Positions 12,070 to 42,032 of a DNA stretch of 43,306 nucleotides are shown one piece after another; the stretch's first letter is position 1; the number at the start of each line of letters is the position of its first letter. This DNA is from a virus (lineage: Duplodnaviria > Heunggongvirae > Uroviricota > Caudoviricetes): the IMG/VR virus record IMGVR_UViG_3300025133_000025. The stretch is one strand, 5' to 3'. The translations under genes were made by a program, and so were the position numbers. The notes under the pieces are model-generated. The model was not told the origin of the DNA. It did not search any database and was given only the letters and a program-made list of their open reading frames with translations.

Positions 12070-12364
12070 CCTGCGGGTTTTCCTCGTCGTAGATATCTAA
12101 ATCTTGTGCAAGACCATCTAGATCATCGTCATCATTTTCAGGCTGCATTTTTTCAAGGATTCTAGCAATTGCCATTAATTGATCAACCGTCTTTGCACGA
12201 GCAGCGTACATCTTTGGAAGCTCTTTCATATATGCTGCAGCACTGCCAGGCTCAGAATCGATGCCTTGTTCAATGTAGCCAAGTACGACAGTTATTGATT
12301 CTCTATCTTCCTCAGCCTGCTTATAAGCCTGCTTAAGCAGTGCTTCAACATCAAGTTCATTCAT
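12056..12364 (-). CDS. Small acidic hypothetical protein
   Basis: 102 aa, D/E-rich (DDDDLDGLAQDLDIYDEE); ATGA-type overlap with the sigma-like gene upstream. Confidence 0.4.
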   Translation of the reverse strand: MNELDVEALLKQAYKQAEEDRESITVVLGYIEQGIDSEPGSAAAYMKELPKMYAARAKTVDQLMAIARILEKMQPENDDDDLDGLAQDLDIYDEENPQDEAL

Positions 12365-15293: not shown

Positions 15294-15726
15294 GTCCAAC
15301 AACATCTTCTGGTTTATAATCACCACCTTTAACGATGATATCAGGTTCAACAGCAAGAATAAGATTTAATGGTGTGTCTTCACTGAAGGGAATCGTTACA
15401 AGATATTTTACTGGGTTGGTCGCAATGTTTTCAATCATGAAACATCTTTCATCAATTGGCACAAAGGGCCGATCGCTACCTTTGTAGCGGCGCACACTGC
15501 TATCACTGTTTACACCAACAACTAATGCGCCATATGGGCCTGCAAGCGCCGCGGCATATTGAATAATCTTTACATGGCCAGGATGTAGAATATCAAAGCA
15601 CCCATTTGTAAATACAACTCGTGATGGTAGAGGAATTCTGCGAAGTTGTACAATCTTTTGCTCCAGTGAATATCCTGTTCTTGGCTTAATAGCTGTAGCA
15701 TAACTTTTCTTTACTCTACGATCCAT
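15214..15726 (-). CDS. Heptose 1-phosphate adenylyltransferase-like (RfaE domain II, cytidylyltransferase fold)
   Basis: VVFTNGCFDILHPGHVKIIQYAA is a near-exact RfaE-II / HIGH-motif nucleotidyltransferase signature. Confidence 0.7.
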   Translation of the reverse strand: MDRRVKKSYATAIKPRTGYSLEQKIVQLRRIPLPSRVVFTNGCFDILHPGHVKIIQYAAALAGPYGALVVGVNSDSSVRRYKGSDRPFVPIDERCFMIENIATNPVKYLVTIPFSEDTPLNLILAVEPDIIVKGGDYKPEDVVGHEYASIAIFPTVEGFSSTAIRGRINA

Positions 15727-16325
15727 GCGATTTGGCCCCCCTTTTCATGGGCAGAGGCAAACAGTGGTTCGATACCAATCGCGTTGAAGTACTCCTGCAC
15801 CAGCTCAGGCTTGCTTGCTCCCTCGCGGTGGTAGTCGTCAACCATGACGATGACAGCACGAGGGAAGCGGCCAGTTACGACGGGCCAGATGGCTGTCAGC
15901 TCCTTGAGGTGGTGAATCGCAGCGGCTTGGCCCTCCAGGGGGTTGTAATCGTAGGAATCGAGGTATACGAGGTCAGGAAGTGTGCCCTGGGCCGCGATTC
16001 TGTGCAGTTCTGCCACGGAATCCGCAGTAATTGCGGTTACGTATTTGGAATCGCACACCTTTCGGGCAAGCTCAGTAGCTGCCGGATCGATGTCAATTGT
16101 GATCACCTGGCCGCCCGTTTGGGCCACGAACCACTCCCAAACACGTGTAGACTGCCCGTCCCACGTCCAATTATCATACTGGCGCACGGTTCCTGTCTCG
16201 ATGATGATATGACCAGTATCTCGCTCTTCTAACATAGCAGCAATGGCCTTACGAAACGTAGCAAATCTACGGCCTAAGCGCTTATCCATGAAAAACTTGT
16301 CATACTCTGCAAGAATGTTGGTCAT
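15711..16325 (-). CDS. Class I SAM-dependent methyltransferase, TylF/macrocin-O-methyltransferase-like (Methyltransf_24)
   Basis: 204 aa; IIETGTVRG glycine-rich SAM motif I; overall resemblance to TylF-type sugar O-methyltransferases; it lies in the GC-rich island. Confidence 0.45.
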   Translation of the reverse strand: MTNILAEYDKFFMDKRLGRRFATFRKAIAAMLEERDTGHIIIETGTVRQYDNWTWDGQSTRVWEWFVAQTGGQVITIDIDPAATELARKVCDSKYVTAITADSVAELHRIAAQGTLPDLVYLDSYDYNPLEGQAAAIHHLKELTAIWPVVTGRFPRAVIVMVDDYHREGASKPELVQEYFNAIGIEPLFASAHEKGGQIAWIVE

Positions 16326-16372
16326 CCTGCCTCCAATATGTACATTGTATCACGCAGTTAAGGGCGTGGAAC

Positions 16373-16780
16373 CTATTTTGCGGCTGCAGCCAGAGCGCTG
16401 GACGACTGGACCTTGCCACCGCGACCGACATTCCAGAGGAGACCCACATTCATGTCGTTACAGAGGTTGACCTCAGGCGTGTTGTCGCTGACACGATCTC
16501 CACCATTGGCGAAGTAGTCAGGCTTGAACCGCTTGATTGCGTCACAGGCAGTGTCATCAGAGTCGTCAAAGGCAACCACCTGTGAGACGCCGCGGATGGC
16601 CATCAGAATCTCCTTGCGCTCTTCAAACGGCATGAAAACGAAGCCCTTCTTGCGGAGCAGCCATGCGTCTGAATTGAGGGCGACAATCACCGGGCCCATC
16701 CGGTTCGCCTGCAGGATCATCCTCACATGCCCGATGTGAATTGGGTCGAAGCCTCCGGATACCATGATTCGCTCATTCAT
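16373..16780 (-). CDS. Cytidylyltransferase-fold nucleotidyltransferase (second RfaE-II/TagD-like paralog)
   Basis: MVSGGFDPIHIGHVRMIL is a HIGH-motif nucleotidyltransferase signature; 135 aa; GC-rich codon usage unlike the 15214 copy. Confidence 0.6.
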   Translation of the reverse strand: MNERIMVSGGFDPIHIGHVRMILQANRMGPVIVALNSDAWLLRKKGFVFMPFEERKEILMAIRGVSQVVAFDDSDDTACDAIKRFKPDYFANGGDRVSDNTPEVNLCNDMNVGLLWNVGRGGKVQSSSALAAAAK

Positions 16781-16791
16781 CTCAACACTCT

Positions 16792-17043
16792 CTATTCTGG
16801 CACAAAGCAGAAGCGCATGACGGGGACCAATCGATCACCCTTCTCGTACATGTCAAAGTTTGACGTGCTCTTGCAGAAGAGCTTCCCCCGGAGGCCGGCA
16901 AAAGCCCTCTCATCTCCGGGCCAGGCGTACTCTGACGTGAGATGGCGTGATACCTCACCATCAAGAAACTGCGGTGTCTCTACCTCAACCACCTCGATGC
17001 CAGGGTAATCCGCGAAGAACGCTCTAACTTCGTCAACCGTCAT
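16792..17043 (-). CDS. Hypothetical protein
   Basis: 83-aa ORF in the GC-rich island; 4-nt overlap with the upstream gene. Confidence 0.35.
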   Translation of the reverse strand: MTVDEVRAFFADYPGIEVVEVETPQFLDGEVSRHLTSEYAWPGDERAFAGLRGKLFCKSTSNFDMYEKGDRLVPVMRFCFVPE

Positions 17044-17315
17044 GGGCGGTTGGCGTCCATCTCCGCCAGCAGCTCATCAGCGTCGTAGCCACACATTGGG
17101 GCGGCATCACGAATCTGCTTCTCGGTGATCTTTCCATTGACGAATGGCAACACGACTAGGGTCTCGCCATCCTCGGCGAGTAGAAATACTCCCCCGCCTC
17201 GCTCCTTGAAGAGCGCCTGCATGTTGTTCCAGCCTGGGATAGGTTCTTCAGTTGCCAAGGGAAAAAGCCCTTCTGGTGTGCACTGGATGCTGTCCAGTGA
17301 ACTCGTAGATGCCAT
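17040..17315 (-). CDS. Hypothetical protein
   Basis: 91-aa ORF, co-directional and tightly packed. Confidence 0.35.
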   Translation of the reverse strand: MASTSSLDSIQCTPEGLFPLATEEPIPGWNNMQALFKERGGGVFLLAEDGETLVVLPFVNGKITEKQIRDAAPMCGYDADELLAEMDANRP

Positions 17316-18048
17316 AATCGCCCGTAGTGGTGGCTTTTCCGTCCTCTACAGCCCAATCGTAGGTGAATTCCCGGTCTCCGAACCGTGTATTCCACCAATC
17401 GATCTTGGACTGGATACGCTCTGGAGGCCGCATAAATGAGTAGTGGAAGTAGGAAATCGGCAGCTTGAGGTGCTGCGCGTTGCCCGAGAACCATCCAGCG
17501 TACTCCCAATCCATGTAGTTGTCGTTTACGAAGCGGCAACCAGGCGTCATCCTGAAGAAGCGAGGAAATTCATGCCACGTGTACGTGTCGAAGTCGTTCA
17601 CGAACGTCCTGGACTTGACGTGCACGCAGTCGACAGGAGTCACGTCCAGATTCCTTGTCAGGACCTTAGCAGCAATGGCCAGCTGGTCATCCTCCCACAC
17701 CTCATCGCCATCAACGATGAAGAGATAGTCCTCAACGCCATCACCGAAGTTGCAGAGGTTGTCACGAATGTAGTTCAGGCCCGCGTTTCGCTGGTGTGTG
17801 TCAGACTCCTGGTTGGTCTGCAGCATGGCCACCTTGTCGTGTGCCTCAGCAGCATCGACAATGCTCATGATGAGACCAACGGTGCCATCAGTGGAGCGAG
17901 CGGAGCGTCCAATGCGGATGAACTCCTGGTACGCACCTTCCACGATCGTGATGGAGGCGACGTGGGGCGACTCGATCATTGCTGGAAGGGAGGCAGGAAT
18001 GAACTCCGCCTCGTTGTACACTGTCATGAGAACGTGGATTCTAGCCAT
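17248..18048 (-). CDS. Glycosyltransferase family 2
   Basis: N-terminal VLMTVYNEAEFI (GT2 signature) and a DXD motif, FIVDGDEVW. Confidence 0.6.
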   Translation of the reverse strand: MARIHVLMTVYNEAEFIPASLPAMIESPHVASITIVEGAYQEFIRIGRSARSTDGTVGLIMSIVDAAEAHDKVAMLQTNQESDTHQRNAGLNYIRDNLCNFGDGVEDYLFIVDGDEVWEDDQLAIAAKVLTRNLDVTPVDCVHVKSRTFVNDFDTYTWHEFPRFFRMTPGCRFVNDNYMDWEYAGWFSGNAQHLKLPISYFHYSFMRPPERIQSKIDWWNTRFGDREFTYDWAVEDGKATTTGDYGIYEFTGQHPVHTRRAFSLGN

Positions 18049-18280
18049 TTTCTGCGGCCCTTCGCATTGCGTCCCACTCCTGCCCAGCAGTAAACATCAT
18101 TGTCGCCAGCAGAGTGTTTGACAAGCCAAACTCATCAAACTCTTCAGCGACACTCATGACAAATTTGGCCTGCATGTCTGGGGCGTCCATGACCATTGTC
18201 TGGCCGCTCTTGAATTCTGCGTAAACTGCCCTCATGTTGCGGCACAATATTTCGTAAGCGATTACTTCTGCATTATCCAT
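18041..18280 (-). CDS. Hypothetical protein
   Basis: 79-aa ORF overlapping the GT2 start by 8 nt. Confidence 0.35.
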   Translation of the reverse strand: MDNAEVIAYEILCRNMRAVYAEFKSGQTMVMDAPDMQAKFVMSVAEEFDEFGLSNTLLATMMFTAGQEWDAMRRAAENG

Positions 18281-19094
18281 CTTCTACCCAGAGAATGTCA
18301 TTGATCTGGCCAGTCTTGGGGAGCTCAATTGTCTTCAAGACCTCACCATTCATTGTAACCAAATGTAGGTGAGATGGAACCTCACCATGCCTCTCGCCTC
18401 GTGAAGCGCGGAAACTTTCACCAACCCAGAGGTTCCCATTGGGGAGCTGGGCAATGCCACGAATGAAGCCAGACAGCTTGACGAGTGGCTCATGGCCGCC
18501 GACGAGCCAGACCTCGCTGTCGTGAGACGAGCAGTAGGCGATGGTGCCATCGTGGAGGACTTCGATGTCGTGGGTGTGCGTTCCACCCTGGCTGACTGGA
18601 TGCATCTCGCTGATCTGGATGACGTCACCATGCGAGGCTTCGTCAATCCAGCTCCAGGGGATGAGCCCAATCTGACTTGTCTGCCCGCGGTTGTTGAGGC
18701 CGACCATGAGGCCATGCTCAGTCGCCGCCAGGGCGTTGATGTGGTTGATGTCAGCTCGGCGCTGGCCAATGTTGATCCGCCACTCTCTTTCCACTTCCGC
18801 CACTACGATGGAGTTGTCCTTCGTGCTCGTGAGGAACATCTGGTTGGCTTGCCTGAAGGCGATTTGGTGGCAGTCCAGCACATTGGGAATCCGGATGAAC
18901 ACCGCAGGGTCGTCGCTGGAGTAGATCCGCACGCCTGTGGCACCCTCATCACGACCTGTCGCAGCTACAACACCGGAGTCGTCTGTGATCAGACCAAACC
19001 AGTTGCTGCAATTGCTGTCATGGAAATAGAGCTCCGCCCGCGTTCCTTCATCATTTACCTGGAGGACGCCGGCGGTTGTTGCTACATAGAGCAA
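18273..19094 (-). CDS. Hypothetical protein, possibly beta-propeller fold
   Basis: 273 aa with repeated short beta-rich segments and H/D-rich motifs (THTHDIEVLHDGTIAY, NGNLWVGESF); no confident family assignment. Confidence 0.4.
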   Translation of the reverse strand: MLYVATTAGVLQVNDEGTRAELYFHDSNCSNWFGLITDDSGVVAATGRDEGATGVRIYSSDDPAVFIRIPNVLDCHQIAFRQANQMFLTSTKDNSIVVAEVEREWRINIGQRRADINHINALAATEHGLMVGLNNRGQTSQIGLIPWSWIDEASHGDVIQISEMHPVSQGGTHTHDIEVLHDGTIAYCSSHDSEVWLVGGHEPLVKLSGFIRGIAQLPNGNLWVGESFRASRGERHGEVPSHLHLVTMNGEVLKTIELPKTGQINDILWVEDG

Positions 19095-19097
19095 GCT

Positions 19098-19352
19098 CTA
19101 CTCCGCTTCTTTGTCTGCTGTCTTCGGCTTGCGCTTCCTGCTACTCGGCTTGCGCTTTGAAGGTAGGCGCTTCTCAGCAAGTGAAGGTAAGGCTGGTGCT
19201 GGTGCTAAATCTACAGGCTTAGCTTCAACAGGCTCAGGCTTAGCTTCAACAGGCTCAGGCTTGGCTTCAACAGGCTCAGGCGTTGGAAGAACCCAACCTG
19301 CTTGCCTCTCACGCTGTGAACGCTTAATTCGTGCTCGTGAACGTTTACTCAT
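19098..19352 (-). CDS. Small basic protein with (PEPVEAK)x3 repeat
   Basis: 84 aa, Lys/Arg-rich termini; the central triple PEPVEAK is encoded by a 21-bp tandem repeat; SD AGGAGA upstream. Confidence 0.45.
   Translation of the reverse strand: MSKRSRARIKRSQRERQAGWVLPTPEPVEAKPEPVEAKPEPVEAKPVDLAPAPALPSLAEKRLPSKRKPSSRKRKPKTADKEAE
19214..19276. repeat. 21-bp tandem repeat x3 (CAGGCTTAGCTTCAACAGGCT), coding
   Basis: Three consecutive near-identical 21-mers inside ORF 19098-19352; one substitution in copy 3. Confidence 0.8.
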
Positions 19353-19363
19353 CTTTGTGTCTC

Positions 19364-20269
19364 CTAGTTTTCAAGTGCTGCAACAATTCTGTTGACAACA
19401 CGTTCTGGTGTATAAGTAGCCGCAATCTTGCTTGCAGGCCCAAGATCCCACTCAAAATGACTCTGTATAAGGGCTTCAACTACGCTAACAAAATCTTCGA
19501 TATTATCTGGCTCAAACATTGGAATAGTATCACCCCACACTTCTTGCATCACGGATGTAGCAGCTACAACAGGAACTGCTCCACACAAAACAGCTTCAAT
19601 CGGGATAAGGCCTAGACCCTCGCGCACTGAAGGGGCGAGCACGCACTTGGACGCACAGAGTATGTTCGTCAGTGACATGCTATTCAAAAAGCCTAGGCCG
19701 CGGGCGCAGCCGTACTTTCCTGGCTTAATTGCTGGGCCTGCGACCATATATGTAAAGCTCTTATCATAGATAGTATTCAGCGTTCTTACAGTTTCCTCAG
19801 CTAGTCGAAACCTCTTTGCTTCATCTTCAAGACGACCATAGGAAAAAAAGTCAGCTGTGCCACGTGGAATCTTTCCAGCGATTGCAGAAGCAACCGTGAG
19901 GTTCACGTTGACTGGGTCACCCACTACGTGATATGCTCCTTCATAGCCCAACTCACGAATCTGCTTACCCACAAATTCAGTATTAACAAGAACGCAATCA
20001 GCAAGATCGAGGCGCCACATATGCTCCTTAGCTCTTGCGTCTTCAGCCTCTGCAGCCCAATTCATATCGAGCACTTTAGCTACAACCTTTGTCTTTCCTT
20101 GCAAAATTGCAGTATTGTACTTCACATCAAGCAATGCTTGGGGATCATGGCAGTATACCCAATCGGCTTCACTACTATCTGTAGCAAGCATTCCGCGTTT
20201 ATGCAGCTCAGTAGCCAATGTTGGTACCTGCCCCCAAGGGCCTGCAAACCCTGTTAACTTAATCTTCAT
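19364..20269 (-). CDS. Glycosyltransferase family 4 (GT-B, group 1)
   Basis: LAPSVREGLGLIPIEAVLCGAVPVVAAT matches the GT4 E-x7-E region (PSxxEGFGLxxLEAMAxGxPVIAT). Confidence 0.55.
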   Translation of the reverse strand: MKIKLTGFAGPWGQVPTLATELHKRGMLATDSSEADWVYCHDPQALLDVKYNTAILQGKTKVVAKVLDMNWAAEAEDARAKEHMWRLDLADCVLVNTEFVGKQIRELGYEGAYHVVGDPVNVNLTVASAIAGKIPRGTADFFSYGRLEDEAKRFRLAEETVRTLNTIYDKSFTYMVAGPAIKPGKYGCARGLGFLNSMSLTNILCASKCVLAPSVREGLGLIPIEAVLCGAVPVVAATSVMQEVWGDTIPMFEPDNIEDFVSVVEALIQSHFEWDLGPASKIAATYTPERVVNRIVAALEN

Positions 20270-25345: not shown

Positions 25346-25739
25346 CTACCAGCATTTCTTCAAGCAGTTCTTTTTCTTCAAGCATTCCAAGTGTATTTGC
25401 AAGCTCAATGCCCCACTCAAAGCGAGTATCAAACCCGTGAACAGAATCAAGCTCTCTAATGACAGCAGCATTCGTTGCGACTTGCAATGGTTTATTTGGA
25501 TACGCTGCCTTGATCTTCTTGCTGCTCACATAAAAGATTGCAGTTTTAGGATCAGAGGTTGACATAAAGACCAATTGGTCAGACATGTCATTCAAAGCGT
25601 CATGCATGGCTACAAGTGACGGTGAAAGATCACTCATCATATCTAAATCAACAATGCTGGCAAAACTTTCAACAGGAACCATTTGTGGTGTTGTTGTCAT
25701 GATTAATTGTACAATGCTGCCAGAACTTTGTAACATCAC
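25323..25739 (-). CDS. Hypothetical protein
   Basis: 138-aa ORF with 4-nt coupling to the nuclease gene upstream. Confidence 0.4.
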   Translation of the reverse strand: MMLQSSGSIVQLIMTTTPQMVPVESFASIVDLDMMSDLSPSLVAMHDALNDMSDQLVFMSTSDPKTAIFYVSSKKIKAAYPNKPLQVATNAAVIRELDSVHGFDTRFEWGIELANTLGMLEEKELLEEMLVDEYDRTA

Positions 25740-26614
25740 TTACAAAACTTTGTTTGCTTAAATGGGCAGAAGAAGCACGCATCTTGCCCAAATTTTGTTT
25801 TTCCAAGCGGAGGGGCAAAACCTCGACGCATTGCTTGCAGAGCTTTTTCTAGTTTGATAAGAAGATTGTCAACCTTCCGTTTTGTGAATTTTGCTTGAAA
25901 AATTTCAATAGGATGTTGCTTCCCTGGCTCACGCTTAAGCAGCATAAAGAATGTCCTGATATTCTCGAATGGAATTCCTGCGGCAACTGAATAGAAATAT
26001 CTGTACAGCATTAACTGGGCTTGCATCCAGTAATCGTTTTTCTTTTTGGACTGCCAACCCCAACCGCATGTCTTCTGATCAAGGATTATTGTCATTCCTG
26101 CTGTCAATAATTCACCGTCTGGGGTAACATGATCCTCAGTCATTTCAACAATCGTATCGATGAATCCCTTAAATTTGAAGTCATCAAACTGGTCACCCTT
26201 AAGGTGACCCTGCAGTGGAACCATCAGTGGATATTCGTTCTGCACAAACTTCCACTTTCCTTCACCAAAATACCTGTTGAACCCTTCGAGTGATGTCGCT
26301 ACAATTTCTTTTCCAGCTCCCAGAAGTTTTCTATTTGGATTTTGGCCGTACGGATTAACGCATTGCTTGCGCGATTCAGTAATAAACGTTTCCCGAAAGA
26401 GATCAACACTCTCAGAAAGTGCACCTCCTGCAAGGATAGCCTGCACTCCTTCGTGCGCTCCAGTTCCAAATGGAGCTGCCCATTCCCACTTTGTATTATG
26501 GGAAGTTCCTTCGGCATCATTCAAGCCGAGAATGTAACCGAGCTTGTGACGCTTTGGACATTCACTGTGCACACGGAATTCCGAAAAACTAATCGTTAGA
26601 TCATTAAAAGACAT
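25736..26614 (-). CDS. PD-(D/E)XK nuclease, Cas4/RecB-like, with a C-terminal Cys cluster
   Basis: GFIDTIVEM...IILDQKT fits the D...(D/E)xK core; the C-terminal CFFCPFKQTKFC Cys cluster resembles the Fe-S module of Cas4/AddB-type nucleases. Confidence 0.5.
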   Translation of the reverse strand: MSFNDLTISFSEFRVHSECPKRHKLGYILGLNDAEGTSHNTKWEWAAPFGTGAHEGVQAILAGGALSESVDLFRETFITESRKQCVNPYGQNPNRKLLGAGKEIVATSLEGFNRYFGEGKWKFVQNEYPLMVPLQGHLKGDQFDDFKFKGFIDTIVEMTEDHVTPDGELLTAGMTIILDQKTCGWGWQSKKKNDYWMQAQLMLYRYFYSVAAGIPFENIRTFFMLLKREPGKQHPIEIFQAKFTKRKVDNLLIKLEKALQAMRRGFAPPLGKTKFGQDACFFCPFKQTKFCK

Positions 26615-35326: not shown

Positions 35327-35402
35327 AACATATATAGTGTCCACGCTGCCATCTATGCCATGGTGTTTCGTGGCAACGATTTTTTCCAGAAATTTTTGTG
35401 CT

Positions 35403-35486
35403 GGCAGGGCTGTTCTGGTGGTGCAATCCTGGCAGAGCTGTTCTGGTGGTGCAATCCTGGCAGAGCTGTTCTGGTGGTGCAAATTC
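35403..35486. repeat. 28-bp tandem direct repeat x3 (GGCAGAGCTGTTCTGGTGGTGCAATCCT)
   Basis: Three head-to-tail copies; copy 1 has 1 mismatch and copy 3 diverges in its last 5 nt. Confidence 0.85.
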
Positions 35487-35698
35487 TCGAGAAGTTGTGC
35501 AGAGGCGTTGCGCGGCTTCGAGGCCTTTCTAAATCTCCAACAACCTATCTGAGGCCTTTCCGCAGGCCCTCGCCGGCCCGAGCTGGGTTGCGCCGACGGG
35601 CGGCTAGAAGGTCCCAACCTGGTATGGAAAGGCCCTGAGGGTGGTGTGGGGCAGGCCTTTCCATGGCGCCAGCACCAAGGCATGCCGTGCCGGCGAGG

Positions 35699-35806
35699 GC
35701 CTATCTTTCCGCAGGGCCTCCGACCACAAGATAGGTCTATCTTTCCGCAGGGCCTCCGACCACAAGATAGGCCTATCTTTCCGCAGGGCCTCCGACCACC
35801 AACCAC
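35699..35806. repeat. 36-bp tandem direct repeat x3 carrying the CTTTCCGCAG promoter upstream box
   Basis: GCCTATCTTTCCGCAGGGCCTCCGACCACAAGATAG x3. A fourth partial unit continues into promoter P1. Further degenerate copies of GGCCTTTCC(G/A) lie at 35554 and 35656. Confidence 0.85.
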
Positions 35807-35814
35807 GGTCTAGC

Positions 35815-35843
35815 TTTCCGCAGCACCACCGCCTTGGTATATT
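35815..35843 (+). promoter_or_regulatory. Cassette promoter P1: TTTCCG-N17-TATATT with TGG upstream (extended -10)
   Basis: gcTTTCCGcagcaccaccgcctTGGTATATT; 17-nt spacer; about 65 nt upstream of the ATG at 35910. Confidence 0.6.
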
Positions 35844-35909
35844 AATAACATAAGGGGCACGGACCAACCGGCAATAAAGCTGGAAGGCCGGCCCCCTGGA
35901 GATACTATC

Positions 35910-36299
35910 ATGGCCAAGTGGAACCCCAGCTCGAAGGTGAACCAGAGCCACCTCCTGACCATCCTGCGCCGCGGCGGCAACGAGTACCTCGACATCGTCG
36001 AGCGCCTCTCCCACCGGGCCCAGAAGCCCAACGGTCCTGACGGCCTGAACGTGACCATCATCCGGGATGCGATCGAGCAGGGCTACCTCGCTACGGATGC
36101 TGAGGCCATCCTGTTCCCCTCCGAGGAGAACGTGAACAAGGCCAAGGTGGCCGCGGCCGAGGATGCCAAGGCGACGATGATCGACAACCTCCTGGAGCTC
36201 GGGCAGCAGGGAGCGGTCAACGCGATGATCCAGGCGGGGACGGTCAGCGCGGAGCTGGTCGCCGGCATCGAGGCCAGCCGGGCCGCCGAAGAGGCCTAG
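35910..36299 (+). CDS. MAK-family small protein, paralog 1 (unknown function)
   Basis: 129 aa; MAKWNPSSKVNQSH N-terminus shared with 3 other cassette ORFs; SD GGAGA 9 nt upstream; about 65% GC. Confidence 0.65.
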   Translation: MAKWNPSSKVNQSHLLTILRRGGNEYLDIVERLSHRAQKPNGPDGLNVTIIRDAIEQGYLATDAEAILFPSEENVNKAKVAAAEDAKATMIDNLLELGQQGAVNAMIQAGTVSAELVAGIEASRAAEEA

Positions 36300-36307
36300 G
36301 CCTGACA

Positions 36308-36336
36308 GGGCCGGCGGGGGCAACACCCGCCGGCCC
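36308..36336 (+). terminator. GC-rich hairpin (11-bp stem) after cassette 1
   Basis: GGGCCGGCGGG-gcaacac-CCCGCCGGCCC; no U-tract, so this may be an intrinsic-terminator variant or a processing/recombination site. Confidence 0.4.
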
Positions 36337-36393
36337 ACCCGTCTGGAGCTGGTCTCACCGGTCCTCAACCTCTCGGCTCCTCCACCCGGAGGG

Positions 36394-36413
36394 CCGAAGG
36401 TCCGGACCTTCGG
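36394..36413. repeat. Perfect 20-bp palindrome CCGAAGGTCCGGACCTTCGG
   Basis: Exact inverted repeat with no loop, in the inter-cassette spacer. Confidence 0.8.
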
Positions 36414-36469
36414 AGCCTAGGCTTTCCGCAGCCCTGCTGCCTAGGCCTTACAGCGTGGGCTGAGCTGGC

Positions 36470-36498
36470 TTTCCGCGGCACCACTGAAATGGTACAAT
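36470..36498 (+). promoter_or_regulatory. Cassette promoter P2: TTTCCG-N17-TACAAT with TGG upstream
   Basis: ggcTTTCCGcggcaccactgaaaTGGTACAAT; a near-duplicate of P3 including the downstream AAGGACGG(A/T)GGCCA. Confidence 0.6.
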
Positions 36499-36556
36499 AT
36501 AATTACAAGGACGGAGGCCATCATACAGATGGGCTGCCGATCCGACTGGAGCCACC

Positions 36557-36967
36557 ATGGCCAAGAAGAACCGCTGGAACCCCTCCTCCAAGGTCAACTG
36601 CAACCACGTCACGGGCATGCTCGCCAAGGGCACGGCGGAGTACAAGGACTGGGTCGGCCGGGCCTTCTCCGTCCCCGCCGACGCCGACGCCGAGTACTTC
36701 GAGGACATCATCCGCGAGGGCCACGAGGACGGCTACCTCACCGATGAGAATGTGGACACCCTGCTGGGTACGGGCCCCTCGACGAAGGACGTCCAGGCCG
36801 CCGCCGCCGGCAACGCCCAGGCCCAGATGATCTCCGGGCTGGCCAACGCCGGGCAGCACAGCGCGGTGGCCTCCATGATCGGCACGACCGTCTCGCAGGA
36901 CCAGGTCGACCAGGTCTACGAGGCGCTCAACCTGGACTTCGCCGCCTTGACCGCGCCGGAGGCCTAG
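36557..36967 (+). CDS. MAK-family small protein, paralog 2
   Basis: 136 aa; MAKKNRWNPSSKVNCNHVTGMLAKG...; the overlapping +/- ORFs at 36489-37024 are rejected as GC artefacts. Confidence 0.65.
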   Translation: MAKKNRWNPSSKVNCNHVTGMLAKGTAEYKDWVGRAFSVPADADAEYFEDIIREGHEDGYLTDENVDTLLGTGPSTKDVQAAAAGNAQAQMISGLANAGQHSAVASMIGTTVSQDQVDQVYEALNLDFAALTAPEA

Positions 36968-37049
36968 CCGGCCCAACCCTTCGCCCCGAGCACCATCGAA
37001 GCCATCGGCTACTAGCACCACCACAGTCGGCCTAGCAGGGAGGAGACTC

Positions 37050-37088
37050 TCTGTTAGGCCGGCCTAACAGCGACTGAGCAGCTCAGTC
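37050..37088. repeat. Two adjacent perfect palindromes (CTGTTAGGCCGGCCTAACAG; CGACTGAGC-a-GCTCAGTCG)
   Basis: A 20-bp exact palindrome followed directly by a 19-bp one, in the spacer after cassette 2. Confidence 0.8.
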
Positions 37089-37097
37089 GATTTAAGG

Positions 37098-37126
37098 TTT
37101 CCGCCGCACCACCGACTTGGTATAAT
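37098..37126 (+). promoter_or_regulatory. Cassette promoter P3: TTTCCG-N17-TATAAT with TGG upstream
   Basis: ggTTTCCGccgcaccaccgactTGGTATAAT. Confidence 0.6.
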
Positions 37127-37187
37127 TTAGGTATAAGGACGGTGGCCACCAAAACGGTGAATCACTGCTCCCGTTGGAGAATGAGAC

Positions 37188-37622
37188 ATGGCCAAGAAGA
37201 ACCGCTGGAATCCTGCCTCGCGTGTCAACTGCAACCACCTCACGGGGATGCTCCTGAAGGGCGACGACGCGTACCGGGACTTCGTCTCCCGCGCCTTCTC
37301 CGCCGCCCCCGAGGAGTTCGAGGCGATCGTCCAGGAGGGCCTCGACTGGGGGTACTTCACCTCGGACAACCGGGACGCCTTGCTCGGCACCGGCCCCTCC
37401 ACGGCCGCGATCTCGGAAGCCGCGGCGGGCAACGCCCAGGCGACGATGATCTCCGGCCTCGCCAACGCCGGCCAGCACAGCGCGGTGGCCTCCCTCGTCG
37501 CCGCCGGGACCTGCACCCAGGACCAGGTCGACCAGGTGTACGGCGCCTTGGAGCTGGACTACGCGGCCCTGATCGCCCCGCCGGCCCCCAAGGCGCCCAA
37601 GGCCAAGAAGGCCGCCAAGTAG
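37188..37622 (+). CDS. MAK-family small protein, paralog 3
   Basis: 144 aa; MAKKNRWNPASRVNCNHLTGMLLKG...; SD GGAGA upstream; Lys-rich C-terminal tail PKAPKAKKAAK. Confidence 0.65.
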   Translation: MAKKNRWNPASRVNCNHLTGMLLKGDDAYRDFVSRAFSAAPEEFEAIVQEGLDWGYFTSDNRDALLGTGPSTAAISEAAAGNAQATMISGLANAGQHSAVASLVAAGTCTQDQVDQVYGALELDYAALIAPPAPKAPKAKKAAK

Positions 37623-37642
37623 CCTAGCCGGCTGCCACTGAC

Positions 37643-37667
37643 GGACCGGCCCCTCCTGGGCCGGTCC
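37643..37667 (+). terminator. GC-rich hairpin (10-bp stem) after cassette 3
   Basis: GGACCGGCCC-ctcct-GGGCCGGTCC; followed by GGCCTTACAGCG and GGCCTAACAGCG half-site copies. Confidence 0.4.
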
Positions 37668-37767
37668 ACCGGCTGGGCCTTACAGCGTGAGCTGCGCGAA
37701 CGCTGATAGTCCTCTCTGAGCCGGCCTAACAGCGCGGGCTGAGCCCGCCGTCACAGTGCCACGAGGC

Positions 37768-37796
37768 TTTCCGCAGCAGGCCAACCATGGTATAAT
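37768..37796 (+). promoter_or_regulatory. Cassette promoter P4: TTTCCG-N17-TATAAT with TGG upstream
   Basis: ggcTTTCCGcagcaggccaaccaTGGTATAAT. Confidence 0.6.
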
Positions 37797-37829
37797 TTAG
37801 GTACCGGAATTGACCGGCTGGAGAACCCC

Positions 37830-38531
37830 ATGATCGATGCACTTACAATCTTCAACGCTTCCACGGATCGGCGGACCTACTGGCGCCTGAATCGTGAGGC
37901 GGGCGCTGCTACCCTGGATGAGGCGATCGCCTTGACCTGGGAGGACTTCTACCCGTACGAGCACATGCCCCAGGATGACGCCATCAACATGGATGGCATG
38001 GACGACATCTTCGAGGTCGGTGGACCGGAGAACATGGAGATCGTGACCCACGGCGGCGGGTGGTTCACCGTGGAGTACAAGAACGGTTGCTCCCAGGAGG
38101 AGGACACCCGCGACCACCCGGAGGAGTGGAACCAGTGGGAACAGGTCACCCGCCTCGTCAGCCAGGACTACCTCACCTTGGAGCGTGGGTTCACCGTCCT
38201 GGACGATACCCCGGCCGGCCACGGCGACGAGTTCGGTCGGATCTACTGGGTGATCGGCGACACCACGGAGCCGGGGACGGTCGATCGGAAGCCCAAGGTG
38301 CTCACCGGTGATGAGGTCATCGAGCGGTCGATCAAGGAGGGCATCCGGTCCGACCTCGAGTTGGAACAGCAGGTCCTGCCGCCGGTCGATCACCGGTGGA
38401 ACGACATGATGATGCAGAGCGCCGCCCTGGACATCCTGGCTGGTGTGACCATGGCCAGCATCCGCTACCACAGCTACGACGCCTGGGAGGATGTGGAGAT
38501 GCTGACCCGCCACTTCCACGGCAAGATCTAG
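37830..38531 (+). CDS. Acidic hypothetical protein (233 aa) in the cassette array
   Basis: SD GGAGAA upstream; D/E/W-rich; no family recognised; the antisense ORF 37797-38555 is rejected. Confidence 0.6.
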   Translation: MIDALTIFNASTDRRTYWRLNREAGAATLDEAIALTWEDFYPYEHMPQDDAINMDGMDDIFEVGGPENMEIVTHGGGWFTVEYKNGCSQEEDTRDHPEEWNQWEQVTRLVSQDYLTLERGFTVLDDTPAGHGDEFGRIYWVIGDTTEPGTVDRKPKVLTGDEVIERSIKEGIRSDLELEQQVLPPVDHRWNDMMMQSAALDILAGVTMASIRYHSYDAWEDVEMLTRHFHGKI

Positions 38532-38576
38532 AAGCCTCACCAGCTGGCTCAGCACCTGCGGCCTGGGGTAGCCTGG

Positions 38577-38598
38577 GCCGTAAGGCCGGCCTTACGGC
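38577..38598. repeat. Perfect 22-bp palindrome GCCGTAAGGCCGGCCTTACGGC
   Basis: Exact inverted repeat centred on GGCCGGCC, in the spacer after cassette 4. Confidence 0.8.
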
Positions 38599-38653
38599 GA
38601 AGAACAGCTCAGCCCCTCCCTTTCCTCCATACTTGGAAGCACAGACCGGCATG

Positions 38654-38682
38654 TTTCCGATGCATGACCGCCATGGTATAAT
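38654..38682 (+). promoter_or_regulatory. Cassette promoter P5: TTTCCG-N17-TATAAT with TGG upstream
   Basis: gTTTCCGatgcatgaccgccaTGGTATAATatattAGGAACCCC; a near-duplicate of P8. Confidence 0.6.
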
Positions 38683-38763
38683 ATATTAGGAACCCCGGCC
38701 GGTTGAATCAATGCCATGGCAGATGGCTGTCATGGCAACTGGCCACCTACTACAGGAAGTGAC

Positions 38764-39591
38764 ATGAACTGGAATAGCATCGCAAATGACCTTGACATCT
38801 GGAACAGTGGTGGGAAGATGAAGGCGACGATCTCGCTCTTCTTGAACAGCCCCGGCATCAGCCACGCCCTGTACATCATCTTCCTCGCTGTCTACGGTGG
38901 CTGGAACATGTTGTCGACCGCCGCGCTCCGCCAGGAGCCTGGCCCGTCGGCGTCCCAGAAGTACGAGTTGACCGACTACGTCAACAAGGACACCATCCTC
39001 AGCATCGTCAACGACGCCCGTCAGAAGGCCTGGAGCGATCTGGAGATCAGTGGTATCATGCCCGAGTGGAAGGTGGGCGGCATGGCGGAGCCGGCCTGCG
39101 CGATCCGGCCGGGCGAGGACAATCCAACCCTTGTCTTCAACAAGATCCAGTTCATCAAGCAGGTGCGTGAGGCCCACGGCTTGGGACTGAAGGAAGCGAA
39201 GAAGGCTGTGGAAGACATGTTGGTGCAGGCTTCCGGGCTCGTCGCCTTCCGTGGAGTCCGTGGGAAGCTCATTGAGCACATGCCGACGACTTTCCTCCAC
39301 ATCACGAACGTCCACATCAATCTCGACGAGCTCGTCTCCCTGCCCATCAACTATCGGCCGCATGCCTACGAAGGAGAGCGCAGGTCGCGTGACAACTCGA
39401 CCAGCGATGACACCTTCTACACGGTGGGGTGGTACTGGGAGAACGTGCTCTCCTTCGAGAACAAGCGACTCTTCCGGAGCTTGGACCACTTCCGAAGCAC
39501 GTCCATCGCAGTGAAGCGGCGCGCCCAGTACCTCAACCACGAGGGTGCCTGGGTTTACGTCGATGATGTCGCCACCGAAATCCTTGCCTGA
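38764..39591 (+). CDS. Membrane-anchored protein with a ribosomal bL12 (L7/L12) C-terminal-domain-like segment
   Basis: The start was chosen at MNWNS (SD AGGAAG 5 nt upstream); the longer frame starts at 38716. TM helix [45 protein letters not shown] aligns to E. coli bL12 [26 protein letters not shown] (GLGLKEAK identical). Confidence 0.55.
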   Translation: [275 protein letters not shown]

Positions 39592-39613
39592 GTGAAGGGG
39601 TTCCTCGGCGAGG

Positions 39614-39653
39614 GGCCCTGGGCCTGCTGTCTTCGGATGGCAGGCCCAGGGCC
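39614..39653 (+). terminator. GC-rich hairpin (14-bp stem) after cassette 5
   Basis: GGCCCTGGGCCTGC-tgtcttcggatg-GCAGGCCCAGGGCC. Confidence 0.45.
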
Positions 39654-39693
39654 TATTAGCGCTTCGCGCCGAAGGCCCCAAGACGCAGCTGGC

Positions 39694-39722
39694 TTTCCGC
39701 CGATCTACCGTGTTTGTATAAT
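39694..39722 (+). promoter_or_regulatory. Cassette promoter P6: TTTCCG-N17-TATAAT (TG adjacent)
   Basis: ggcTTTCCGccgatctaccgtgtttgTATAAT; downstream ATAAGGGGCGC resembles the P1 leader. Confidence 0.55.
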
Positions 39723-39743
39723 AATACTATAAGGGGCGCAGGT

Positions 39744-39759
39744 GCTGAAATATTTCAGC
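39744..39759. promoter_or_regulatory. Perfect 16-bp palindrome GCTGAAATATTTCAGC in the P6 leader (operator-like or leader hairpin)
   Basis: Exact inverted repeat about 15-30 nt downstream of the predicted TSS and 25 nt upstream of the SD; a second CTGAAA...TTTCAG palindrome lies at 40265. Confidence 0.45.
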
Positions 39760-39794
39760 AGTTGTTATAAACAGCCCCGACATGGAGAGAAGAC

Positions 39795-40190
39795 ATGGCT
39801 AAGAACCGCTGGAACCCTTCGAGCAAGGTCAACTGCAATCACATCACCGGGATGATCGCCAAGGGTGACGCCGAGTACAAGGACTGGGTCGCCCGGATCT
39901 TCGGCTCGAACAACGACACCTTCGCCGACCTGGTGACCGAGGGCAAGACCGCGGGCTACCTCACCGCCGAGAACTCCAACTTCCTGCTGGGCACGTCGGC
40001 CAGCACCCCGGCTGTGAAGGCGGCCGCCGCGGCCGACGCCAAGCGCAGCATGGTCATCGGCCTGCTGGGTGCGGGACAGGACACGGCGGTCGATTCGCTG
40101 ATCCAGTCCGGGCAGGTGGACCAGGAGTTCGTCGACAGCATCCGCGCGGAAATCGTGGATGCTGAGGAAGCTCGCCGCTCGTCGAAGTAG
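39795..40190 (+). CDS. MAK-family small protein, paralog 4
   Basis: 131 aa; MAKNRWNPSSKVNCNHITGMIAKGDAEYKDWVARIFG...; SD GGAGAG upstream. Confidence 0.65.
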   Translation: MAKNRWNPSSKVNCNHITGMIAKGDAEYKDWVARIFGSNNDTFADLVTEGKTAGYLTAENSNFLLGTSASTPAVKAAAAADAKRSMVIGLLGAGQDTAVDSLIQSGQVDQEFVDSIRAEIVDAEEARRSSK

Positions 40191-40198
40191 AGAAACGC

Positions 40199-40226
40199 CA
40201 GGCCGGGGGCTTCGGTCCCCGGCCGT
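40199..40226 (+). terminator. Hairpin GGCCGGGGGC-TTCG-GTCCCCGGCC (UUCG-type loop) after cassette 6
   Basis: 8-10-bp GC stem immediately after the stop; a CCGTACGG palindrome and a GCTGCTTTT run follow. Confidence 0.5.
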
Positions 40227-41238
40227 ACGGCGCTGCTTTTCAAAGCTCTTCGGCGCAGCCAGCGCTGAAAGACCGGTCTTTCAGAGAAAGCAGCTGAGCC
40301 CGCAGTCCTGGCCACAGCTCCCTGCCTGGCAACATTCCGACGCTGTCCAGCTTTCGGCAGCCTACATCACCTTCCGATGCGGCTCAGCACTGCAATGTGC
40401 TGAAAAGACTGCAATTTTGCTGCCCACTGCCCTGCCGATGCTGAATGTGAGATTCGAGGCATCTGCTCTTCGCTGCAGCAATCATATGAATACTATGCCC
40501 ATCCCGGTTTTTCACTATACCCGCCGGGATAGAAAGCAGGCTGGCCCATGCGCTGGCCTCGGCAGCCCATCGATGCAGCGGAAGCAGACGGTGTGGCGCT
40601 ATGATATCATTCCCAGCAAAACGCCACCAGACCTGCCGTGCCGCGACGCTCTGCGCTCTCCCTTCGCAACTCTGCTCCCGGCTTCTGGCGCTGCGCTCTG
40701 TAGTTGCGGGCACCACTCCACCCATTCTTGTTAGGCTTGAAAACCTTATCAGGCCATCTCGTCAGCTCCCATTTTGTGAGTTTGCATATGAATCAGTAGC
40801 GCCAGCTGTTCTTCCCTATTTGCAATGTGAAGAGCTGCTCAGTGTTGTCCGAGCTGTAGACATTTTGTTGTGTGATGTTAAAGGCTTAGGGCTCTGCTGC
40901 TGTCCCTGCAGCGTTGCTCCACCCCGCAGCGCCAAAGCAGGGAAACAGCATATGCTGATATCATAAAGCACACAGAGCTTACAGCACCAGCAGAGAAACG
41001 AGGTTTAGGAGTTGGGAGTTGTGGTATAGAACCTATCCTATTGGAGTCTATTGGTTTATCTGTTAGTTAGTTGTTGGTTCTGATACCATCAAAGGCACGT
41101 TGTATTGTAGCAAGAGTATATGAATGAGGCTGCCCAGCATTTCCGGCTGACCAAATTGGTAGGCTGCAGGGCAAGCCGCGTGAGTTCGGACTGTTGGATT
41201 GCAGTCCTGATGATATCTTCTGGCAACATCCACAGTAA
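40227..41238. other. About 1-kb apparently non-coding region with palindromes (candidate structured RNA or decayed cassettes)
   Basis: Only low-complexity R/S/P/C-rich ORFs on either strand (40159-40734, 40601-40966, 40384-40725). Contains the CTGAAAGACCGGTCTTTCAG palindrome and several short hairpins. GC is intermediate. Confidence 0.4.
40265..40284. repeat. Perfect 20-bp palindrome CTGAAAGACCGGTCTTTCAG
   Basis: Exact inverted repeat; shares CTGAAA/TTTCAG arms with the 39744 palindrome. Confidence 0.8.
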
Positions 41239-41266
41239 TTTCCGTGTATGAATTCACTGTTATAAA
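41239..41266 (+). promoter_or_regulatory. Cassette promoter P7: TTTCCG-N16-TATAAA with TGT upstream
   Basis: aaTTTCCGtgtatgaattcacTGTTATAAAat; AT-rich context. Confidence 0.5.
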
Positions 41267-41304
41267 ATAGAAATAGGTGAGAATGTTCCACCGAGGAGAT
41301 AAGC

Positions 41305-41604
41305 ATGAGCGATAACAGGGACTTCCCAACGATTCGTCGCCTGATTGGTGTCATTGAGGACGCATCTTCTGCTGAGCAGATTATCCTCAACAACAGGGTT
41401 TTGGGCGATCACCTCGGCGGAATTATCCGCATTCGGAATGAGGGCGTGATCAGGAATCTCTACTTTGGCAACGCATCCTCCGAAGGCGCCCTCGATGCTT
41501 TGATTGCGCTTGTTGAAGCTATTCGATCCGAAGCTGCCCACGAATTGGCTGGGCAGGGTGTGGATGTCAGGCCGGTTTCAGATGCAACGAAGATTTCCGA
41601 CTAA
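41305..41604 (+). CDS. Hypothetical protein (99 aa)
   Basis: SD GAGGAG 7 nt upstream; the stop overlaps the -35 box of P8. Confidence 0.55.
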   Translation: MSDNRDFPTIRRLIGVIEDASSAEQIILNNRVLGDHLGGIIRIRNEGVIRNLYFGNASSEGALDALIALVEAIRSEAAHELAGQGVDVRPVSDATKISD

Positions 41605-41622
41605 CAACCGCCATGGTATAAT
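41594..41622 (+). promoter_or_regulatory. Cassette promoter P8: TTTCCG-N17-TATAAT with TGG upstream
   Basis: aTTTCCGactaacaaccgccaTGGTATAATatacctAGGAACCCCC; a duplicate of the P5 module. Confidence 0.6.
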
Positions 41623-41657
41623 ATACCTAGGAACCCCCAACCCAAGCGAGTACTAAC

Positions 41658-42032
41658 ATGGCCGCCCGCACACTTTCCGACCGCTTCTCAGAGTTCATCC
41701 ACTTCGAGTACGGTGATGGCAACGGACGACTGAACCTGCTCGAAGAGGCCATCAAGCGAGTAGATGAGCCCCATTACGCGCAGAACAACTCACACTACTA
41801 TGTGCGACCCGACGGATCATGGGGAGCTCGCCCGCCGCTCTCGATGGGGCCGCGCGACTCGTACGAGTCGCGCGGCGGGATGCCGGCTTTGACATACGAT
41901 CCGAAGTATGTCTTCTGGCCCGAGGACGGATTCGTGTACGTGCGGTCGCGTGAGGCTGCTATCGAGCTCGTGACGATCATGGTCCTCCACAACGCCCGCA
42001 TCGCGGTGCGGGTGCTGGAAATCATGTCCTGA
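41658..42032 (+). CDS. Hypothetical protein (124 aa), GC-rich
   Basis: ORF directly downstream of P8; about 58% GC; weak SD. Confidence 0.5.
   Translation: MAARTLSDRFSEFIHFEYGDGNGRLNLLEEAIKRVDEPHYAQNNSHYYVRPDGSWGARPPLSMGPRDSYESRGGMPALTYDPKYVFWPEDGFVYVRSREAAIELVTIMVLHNARIAVRVLEIMS

Follow-up and report, generated by a model that had tools for sequence, protein, structure and literature searches.

We analyzed a 43,306-nt stretch of DNA from a phage of the Caudoviricetes (IMG/VR record IMGVR_UViG_3300025133_000025; this whole stretch is referred to as the window), in which an island at positions 35500-41000 carries six cassette genes, in the order P1 P2 P3 G4 G5 P6, with perfect palindromes in the spacers between them. 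With moderate confidence, we regard these palindromes as the hairpin-forming, unit-end part of a junction module that separates autonomous cassettes and serves cassette shuffling, resembling the promoter-early stem-loop (PeSL) elements, the composite terminator/promoter cassettes found in T4-type phages (Arbiol et al. 2010, PMC2839356; Comeau et al. 2014, PMC4122927). They look like a novel form of the terminator-plus-promoter junction modules known from large phages and not like a new type of mobile-element site. We favor this reading because the architecture matches the published definition of a PeSL, namely a stem-loop, a sigma-70-like promoter, a Shine-Dalgarno sequence and an ATG, repeated among the ORFans of a hyperplastic region, with degraded copies that retain only the -35 and with a location near indels or displacements (PMC4122927). 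Terminator and promoter activity of PeSLs, together with their recombination into mini-circles, have been shown experimentally (PMC2839356).

The first-pass annotation had listed five exact palindromes between the cassettes, and all five were recovered at their coordinates, each of them intergenic:

36394-36413, + strand: palindrome W1, CCGAAGGTCCGGACCTTCGG (arms CCGAAGGTCC and GGACCTTCGG), exact, 95 nt past the P1 stop codon
37051-37070, + strand: palindrome W2, CTGTTAGGCCGGCCTAACAG (arms CTGTTAGGCC and GGCCTAACAG), exact, a family member
37071-37089, + strand: hairpin CGACTGAGC-A-GCTCAGTCG, 9-bp arms with a 1-nt centre, of the GCTNAGC type and outside the CCGG-centred family
38577-38598, + strand: palindrome W4, GCCGTAAGGCCGGCCTTACGGC (arms GCCGTAAGGCC and GGCCTTACGGC), exact, 3' of gene G4
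40265-40284, + strand: palindrome W6, CTGAAAGACCGGTCTTTCAG (arms CTGAAAGACC and GGTCTTTCAG), exact, closing the final paralogue cassette, where the island has its right edge

With a loop of at most 1 nt, the island contained 7, 6 and 4 palindromes with arms of at least 8, 9 and 10 bp, respectively, compared with means of 0.23, 0.10 and 0.01 in 300 dinucleotide-preserving shuffles of the same region, and 8 of the 10 such palindromes in the whole window fell in 35764-41876. Since the palindrome sequences recurred at 99.6-100% identity within independent JGI, ENA and Logan contigs, they are not an assembly artefact.

Four of the listed elements (W1, W2, W4 and W6) belong to a single CCGG-centred family, with the consensus CYGWWRGNCC for the left arm and GGNCYWWCRG for the right arm. 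The family comprised 17 complete elements and one cut by an assembly gap in five lineages, with nine distinct cores in all. Four elements are in the window and 13-14 in four diverged versions of the island (L007/L008, L028, L032 and L034/L035/L037), which we found on contigs with the paralogue family from other metagenomes and which share the promoter of the window and its type of palindrome. The idea of a common half-site sequence thus held for this family and failed for the 19-mer at 37071, which is an exact palindrome with a different motif. Family arms were exactly 10 bp long, with pairing dropping from the 11th position outward, and C1, G3, G7, C9 and C10 were invariant. Among the 17 aligned elements, 170 of 170 scored arm positions formed Watson-Crick pairs with no G-U wobble, five pairs were altered on both sides (34 cells) with no one-sided changes, and slid-register controls were only 21-51% paired; the complete pairing is in part a matter of ascertainment, since many elements were chosen for perfect palindromy. 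The centre held 0, 1 or 3 nt, with four copies carrying 1 or 3 extra (…TCC-A-GGA…, …TCC-ACA-GGA…), which fits a hairpin loop and would not be tolerated by a rigid double-stranded dimer site. Every family copy was located 3' of a stop codon, on the coding-strand side.

These features bear on whether the palindromes could be double-stranded operators at which a dimeric DNA-binding protein regulates the neighbouring promoters. The 17-bp dyad repeat found in Cluster O mycobacteriophages offers a precedent (PMC4351075). Our elements are likewise palindromic, intergenic and upstream of promoters, with several invariant positions; the Cluster O repeat is also short, restricted to a single phage lineage and mostly intergenic, and its direct repeat once flanks a gene missing from relatives (PMC4351075). 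However, the Cluster O repeat has invariant arms and a variable 3-bp centre and is distributed genome-wide, the pattern of a protein site (PMC4351075), whereas here the arms covary, the CCGG centre is mostly fixed and the copies are confined to one island. In addition, four copies had a half-site spacing that differed by 1 or 3 bp, the variable positions stayed symmetric (five of them covarying), which a dimer site would not need, and the terminal palindromes had no promoter behind them. At promoter-bearing junctions, the palindrome or hairpin-plus-box element was positioned 26-75 bp upstream of the -35, with no phasing. Given the variable centre, the covariation and this box-promoter distance, an operator function is very unlikely.

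The right arm of the palindrome also stands alone, as the loose half-site GGCCTWACAGCG, and the free copies that had been noticed at first reading are genuine. These and the separate hairpins of the spacers are as follows:

36444-36455, + strand: box-only copy GGCCTTACAGCG, right arm without left arm
37676-37687, + strand: box-only copy GGCCTTACAGCG, 9 nt past the hairpin at 37643-37667
37723-37734, + strand: box-only copy GGCCTAACAGCG, from the half-site search
39650-39661, + strand: degenerate box GGCCTATTAGCG, at the base of the 19-bp UUCG hairpin that follows G5, from sequence and fold
36308-36336, + strand: first hairpin after P1, 11-bp GC stem, 7-nt loop
37643-37667, + strand: first hairpin after P3, 10-bp stem, 5-nt loop
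39613-39654, + strand: first hairpin after G5, 19-bp stem, C(UUCG)G loop
40201-40224, + strand: first hairpin after P6, C(UUCG)G loop, followed by GTACGGCG

Copies of GGNCYWWCRG, the 10-nt motif of the arm, numbered 14 in the window against 3.0 expected, and 13 of them were inside the island. When only the right arm was used as the query, 17 of 29 copies were palindromic and 11 free-standing, and the left arm was free-standing just 5 times. In an alignment of six junctions around G4/G5, the block GGCCTWACRGCG was invariant, and its 5' side was occupied either by its complement or by an unrelated GC-rich hairpin. GCTGAGC/GCTCAGC, the motif type of the 19-mer, reappeared 1-8 nt 3' of the box at other junctions, as read from the sequence.

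Each cassette starts from a promoter of the form TTTCCG-N17-TAYAWT, which had 7 matches in the window against 0.01 expected, all on the + strand between 35815 and 41622; L007 and L028 each had 7 such promoters and L032 had 3. The -35 hexamer TTTCCG is embedded in a conserved box, CTTTCCGC, that is longer and better kept than a normal -35 and may serve as a site for an activator or for the sigma-like protein that the phage encodes at 12361-13116. Island promoters were followed by a conserved leader, with GGAG read 6-10 nt before each ATG. The promoter modules of the window are:

35815-35843, + strand: module 1, TTTCCG-N17-TATATT, upstream of P1
36470-36498, + strand: module 2, upstream of P2
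37098-37126, + strand: module 3, upstream of P3
37768-37796, + strand: module 4, upstream of G4
38654-38682, + strand: module 5, upstream of G5
39694-39722, + strand: module 6, upstream of P6
41594-41622, + strand: module 7, upstream of the open reading frame (ORF) at 41658-42032
36421-36445, + strand: orphan -35-only copy GCTTTCCGCAGCCCTGCTGCCTAGG without a -10, in L007 and L028 also kept upstream of the P2-type cassette

The orphan copy matches the "degraded half PeSLs" of the published description (PMC4122927). At L007 2441-2478, a 72-aa gene is apparently leaderless, with an in-frame ATG overlapping its -10 box, TGTATAAT, and a second ATG 7 nt after that box.

A box or palindrome was present at 20 of 21 promoter-bearing junctions, and the 21st (G5 to P6 of the window) has the degenerate copy GGCCTATTAGCG. 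The element was also found behind the last island cassette of the window, L007 and L028, where no promoter lies downstream, and was missing at the sole two promoter-less junctions (L007 b148>c104 and h140>i87), both of which have tetraloop hairpins. Its presence at unit ends, together with its absence from promoter-less junctions, is the distribution expected of a transcription-unit end signal.

The spacers also carry signs of being read as RNA. At most stop codons, a separate and stronger GC-rich hairpin precedes the palindrome, and among perfect-stem hairpins with non-self-complementary 4-nt loops from all islands, 10 of 18 loops were GNRA or UNCG when read on the sense strand, as opposed to 0 of 18 when read on the antisense strand. 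The sense-only loops indicated that the spacers are shaped for, and read as, RNA. The left arm of W2 is shared with an upstream GAGA-looped hairpin (37026-37063), and at five junctions (W2 and L007 c, e, f and g) the 3' arm of the first hairpin is the left arm of the palindrome, so that the two hairpins are mutually exclusive there. Of the roles proposed in the first-pass annotation, RNA processing, RNA stability or termination is therefore the better supported half, given the unit-end distribution and the sense-only GNRA/UNCG loops. Its "very stable RNA hairpins" proved moderate only, as the palindromes alone were calculated at -7.4 to -14.4 kcal/mol as RNA (-5.3 to -8.9 as DNA), weaker than other hairpins of the same spacers. 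The cruciforms it suggested are improbable for 20-bp palindromes with a GC-rich centre.

The position 3' of stop codons, at the ends of transcription units, and the ability to form hairpins would also be expected if the palindromes were ordinary rho-independent terminators and nothing more. Yet no T-run follows any of them, as both a terminator scan and the sequence showed; a stronger tetraloop hairpin is already in place ahead of most palindromes; it is the sequence that is conserved and not structure alone; and the right arm also occurs by itself. We consider this simplest explanation quite unlikely.

Comparison with the relatives showed that the cassettes are gained, lost and reordered. The first-pass annotation had suggested examining junctions in related genomes, and cassette content and order indeed differed at the palindrome junctions. 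The L007 order is P1a P1b c104 d68 e72 G4' P2' P3' i87. L028 has an additional paralogue between G4 and G5, bounded by direct copies of GGCCTTACAGCG, and an additional gene of 100 aa that lies after the P6 hairpin-plus-box and before the terminal palindrome. L032 has a paralogue between the G4-type gene and an apparent G5-type start, as judged by eye. The left flank of the island was 80% identical between the window and L007 over ~135 bp. For the P2 cassette, homology between the two starts at the orphan -35, at most ~10 nt past the palindrome (window 36422, L007 3456), and the upstream gene and palindrome differ. Mostly, the palindromes move with the upstream gene: P1 has CCGAAGGTCCGGACCTTCGG in three lineages, and G4 carries GCYGTAAGGCCGGCCTTACRGC in three lineages, with one compensatory change. 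The W4 counterparts behind the G4 orthologues of L007 and L032 read GCTGTAAGGCCGGCCTTACAGC, a compensatory C-G to T-A change, and the positional counterpart of W6 in L028 is GCTGAAAGTCC-A-GGACTTTCAGC. The W2 core was found unchanged at a non-orthologous junction of L007 (~916-935), after a P1-type gene, and thus the joints are not at one fixed base. In L034 (1-420 and 1010-1440), a paralogue cassette sits within long non-coding stretches rich in short repeats (GGCTTAG, GGCAAAGTTAGGT), and the same palindrome is present on both sides of the paralogue gene and again at the contig start. L028 junctions have GCAGATAGGC ahead of the promoters.

The identity of the W1 core in the window, L028 and L034 (20/20 positions), in a 3' spacer that is otherwise 69/175 identical (39%), is among the observations that suggest recognition of a sequence-specific hairpin, as single-stranded DNA (ssDNA) or RNA, by a dedicated phage factor, which could be a cassette-mobilising recombinase or nuclease or a regulator of read-through. 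Recurrence of identical cores at non-orthologous junctions, the invariant positions with a sharp 10-bp arm boundary and no wobble pairs, and extra cassettes bounded by direct box copies point the same way. The palindrome is moreover weaker than the neighbouring hairpin and hence not needed for stability alone, and the five junctions with mutually exclusive GNRA hairpin and palindrome are switch-like. A dedicated factor is nevertheless rather doubtful in our judgment. No integrase, transposase, RAYT (REP-associated tyrosine transposase) or HNH domain was found in the Pfam-scanned ORFs of the window (43 kb of a ~175-kb genome); only a PD-(D/E)XK nuclease (25736-26614) and an RNase T-like exonuclease were seen there, 9-10 kb off. 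Breakpoints fall on either side of the palindrome with no single position, crossover within palindromes of differing cores would yield asymmetric hybrids, of which there were 0 among 17 palindromic copies, and the centre is variable. The mobilising recombinase or HNH protein put forward in the first-pass annotation accordingly found no backing in either the gene content or the breakpoints. The missing U-tract, modest stability, presence of a stronger hairpin, sequence-level conservation and solo half-site keep a specific factor under consideration all the same.

A known hairpin-dependent mobile system (integron attC sites, repetitive extragenic palindromic (REP) elements with their RAYT, or IS200/IS605-type ends) would be a further source of such arrays. 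W2 contains GTTAGGC and GCCTAAC, which correspond to an integron core and inverse core, the cassettes share one orientation, and the box includes TTAC, the IS608 target. Like attC sites, the palindromes are hairpin-forming repeats at cassette 3' ends in a one-orientation array. However, they measure 20 bp versus 57-141 bp for attC and pair perfectly with no extrahelical bases. By the attC definition (5' RYYYAAC, 3' GTTRRRY), only W2 has both motifs, adjacent and in reversed order, and the other palindromes read GTAAGGC or GAAGGTC and misfit GTTRRRY. No IntI, TnpA or RAYT gene was seen in the scanned ORFs and no integrase or attI in the window, and each cassette has its own promoter. With REP elements and bacterial interspersed mosaic elements, the palindromes share a GC-rich extragenic position at gene 3' ends and proposed roles in mRNA stability or termination; they differ in lacking the GTAG/CGTC tag, in the absence of a RAYT or Y1 transposase from the window, and in being restricted to a single phage lineage. 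When 185,579 species genomes were scanned for the palindrome, 5 isolated hits came up, each a single copy and in unrelated taxa, without any repeat family, and IMG/VR had none, so that a host REP family was rejected. Any of these systems is an extremely improbable source. Two other classes were set aside on structure: repeats of the CRISPR kind, since there are no short spacers and genes lie between the copies, and miniature inverted-repeat transposable elements, since the elements are too short and have no terminal inverted repeat or target-site duplication structure.

Wider searches gave the following. Neither the island nor 25 kb of the window had a megablast match among 50,697 phage records, and a protein-pattern scan for the paralogues in IMG/VR found nothing. 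The IMG/VR pattern AGGNCCGGNCCTWWCRGCG, which misses the GGCCGGCC subtype, returned 14 loci that we rejected as chance, as they lacked the promoter module and were almost all single hits. A promoter-plus-leader scan of 241 million metagenome records recovered the lineage of the window and three unrelated chance matches (L024, L025 and L027).

Morons, reportedly described by Juhala et al. 2000 and Hendrix et al. 2000, are usually solitary insertions in temperate phages and have canonical terminators. The island cassettes resemble them in being single genes with their own promoter, a downstream hairpin and a composition unlike the surrounding phage genes (GC content at third codon positions, GC3, of 0.84-0.98 versus 0.27-0.48), but form a tandem array of 6-9 units that share a junction module with a non-canonical terminator, and 4 of the 6 window genes are paralogous.

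The likeness to PeSLs is closer. In both, a stem-loop lies upstream of a sigma-70-like -35/N17/-10 that is followed by a Shine-Dalgarno sequence and an ATG, copies of the module separate small ORFans within the hyperplastic region of a large myovirus, -35-only degraded copies occur, and the modules adjoin insertions, deletions, replacements and displacements of whole ORFs among relatives. The differences lie in detail: sequence-conserved 20-bp perfect palindromes with covarying arms and a free half-site here, against a stem of a G-run and a C-run in PeSLs; two hairpins, with the extra tetraloop-capped one first, against one; a stem-loop farther from the -35 than in the published PeSL figures; no AT-rich upstream region, within an island of 60-67% GC in a 42% GC genome; and a -35 of TTTCCG inside CTTTCCGC.

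Several observations weigh against a unit-end role of the palindromes in a PeSL-like module. No U-tract lies behind any palindrome or first hairpin, and the terminator scan reported none. The palindrome hairpins are weaker as RNA than the first hairpins of the same spacers, and in 5 of 18 cases the minimum-energy RNA fold chose the upstream GNRA tetraloop hairpin and not the palindrome. Fold energy of the spacers was uninformative on the strand, at -814.7 kcal/mol for sense and -815.0 kcal/mol for antisense. Conservation of the W1 core, complete against the 39% of its flanks, exceeds what a generic terminator needs. The 170 arm positions lack any G-U wobble, a count that is in part due to ascertainment. 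The promoter-less junctions amount to two, from one genome, and the relationship of this phage to T4-type phages is distant.

In this PeSL-like arrangement, a cassette runs from a promoter through a leader with a 5' hairpin, GGAG and a small ORFan to a GC-rich hairpin, often GNRA- or UNCG-looped, and the box GGNCYWWCRG(CG), which either stands alone after the hairpin or forms the perfect 20-bp palindrome with a complementary copy of itself. In the transcript, the hairpin-plus-box would fix the unit's 3' end through U-tract-free termination or insulation, and each cassette would then be transcribed from its own promoter. In the DNA, the repeated modules would provide homology for deletion, insertion and reordering of cassettes by general phage recombination, as in PeSLs. 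Templated correction of quasi-palindromes during replication, an established process (Ripley's quasi-palindrome model), would be the likely cause of the perfect arms.

More speculatively, the palindrome might be no passive terminator and instead the recognition hairpin of an undescribed cassette-handling system in a lytic marine myovirus, either an ssDNA exchange site (acting through template-switching or an enzyme encoded elsewhere) or an RNA switch for read-through formed by the GNRA hairpin and the palindrome, which we think improbable. Should the exchange-site version be true, the high GC3 of the island (0.84-0.98, against ~0.3 for the phage) would be a by-product of frequent recombination through GC-biased gene conversion, and the GC3 excess would be maintained across lineages at ~50% protein identity.

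The cassette genes themselves are:

35910-36299, + strand: P1, 129 aa, paralogue family MAK..WNPSSKVN
36557-36967, + strand: P2, 136 aa, paralogue
37188-37622, + strand: P3, 144 aa, paralogue
37830-38531, + strand: G4, 233 aa, ORFan
38764-39591, + strand: G5, 275 aa as called in public contigs, with a short L7/L12-C-like stretch
39795-40190, + strand: P6, 131 aa, paralogue

Four of the six are thus paralogues (MAK..WNPSSKVNxNH), 33-38% identical to the first, and the other two are different ORFans. Except for short partial hits of G5, the cassette proteins had no significant Pfam, PHROG, PDB or BFVD match. The paralogue is confidently predicted to be all-helical (predicted local distance difference test score, pLDDT, 85), and the model had no PDB or BFVD neighbour at E ≤ 0.001. 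The family is very rare, with 12 clusters among 5.8 billion proteins. Its N-terminus, MAK(K)(N)RWNPSSKVNxNH, is strongly conserved, with 4 copies each in the window, L007 and L028; with the divergent body behind it, this N-terminus is reminiscent of the sequence that targets T4 internal proteins to the capsid, whose locus is likewise known for shuffled modules.

The source is a large uncultured marine myovirus, with gp6-like and gp25-like baseplate proteins in the window and a baseplate wedge protein 31-32% identical to those of Microcystis phage Mel-JY01 and Flavobacterium phage immuto, the best phage matches. Public contigs with the same genes reach 175-179 kb. Most of the window has ~42% GC, and the GC3 figures given above hold for the six island genes versus most other genes of the window. 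As this contrast is kept in relatives with ~50% protein identity, it does not reflect a recent transfer whose composition has yet to ameliorate; it may have arisen through GC-biased conversion linked to recombination, or through selection. A second, milder GC-rich stretch at 15500-19500 on the - strand (50-59% GC, GC3 ~0.7) contains cytidylyltransferase-like genes and unannotated ORFs, and no island-type promoters or palindromes.

At the left edge of the island lies a repeat array:

35698-35805, + strand: three tandem 36-bp units, each with the -35 box CTTTCCGCAGG and a AAGATAGGCCTATCTT-type palindrome

A second tandem array at this edge has 3 x 28 bp at 35401-35484. As blast coordinates suggest, the number of 36-bp units differs among contigs that are 99.6-100% identical (fewer in L038/L042, one more in L040), and contig L005 is without 35572-35704. 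Directly past the island, ~1 kb (40300-41300; L007 5100-5777; L028 5970-6740) has no convincing ORF and shows weak conservation between lineages (64% over 150 bp), with no Rfam match. It holds a conserved inverted pair ~350 bp apart, GCTATGATATCA and TGATATCATA in the window (40601 and ~40955) and CTACGATATCA and TGATATCGTAG in L007, with a similar pair in L028. Either a non-coding RNA or an element acting as DNA could lie here. A scan of the island with Rfam gave nothing at gathering thresholds and three sub-threshold chance matches, and there were no tRNAs.

Palindromes of other kinds also occur nearby. The longest in the window is the 28-bp perfect palindrome GCCGCGCGACTCGTACGAGTCGCGCGGC at 41849-41876, which has a GTAC centre, belongs to a different family and lies within the ORF at 41658-42032, whose island-type promoter starts at 41594; contig L003 terminates there as a fold-back copy. 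The P6 leader holds an 18-bp perfect palindrome, TGCTGAAATATTTCAGCA (39743-39760), with the same outer bases, CTGAAA...TTTCAG, as CTGAAAGACCGGTCTTTCAG at 40265, the 3' end of the P6 cassette.

Seven ends of public short-read contigs coincided exactly with palindromes, six in the island and one the fold-back at 41849-41876 (window 37051, 37055, 38587, 39743 and 41876; L002, L003, L004, L040, L043 and L044). In L007, an N-gap separates two palindrome copies, and L034 begins mid-palindrome. We rejected the view that these are real DNA ends, as one contig ends in a fold-back copy and others continue across the same sites. Most likely, they are breaks of the assembly graph at perfect palindromes, which would explain why the relatives are known as small fragments. 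Because the palindromes break short-read assemblies, such islands will appear in viromes too seldom or in pieces.

Large phages test new genes in their hyperplastic regions, and the entry and exit of genes there have been documented mainly for T4-type coliphages and vibriophages. The island follows the logic of PeSLs or of a moron array in a marine myovirus that is uncultured and distant from those phages, and adds to it a covarying perfect palindrome, a free half-site flanking inserted cassettes, and an extreme, persistent GC3 contrast. If the palindromes are indeed a unit-end signal without a U-tract, they would offer a useful marker by which the transcription units of such phages can be annotated; if they are a recombination site, they would represent a new route of gene flux.

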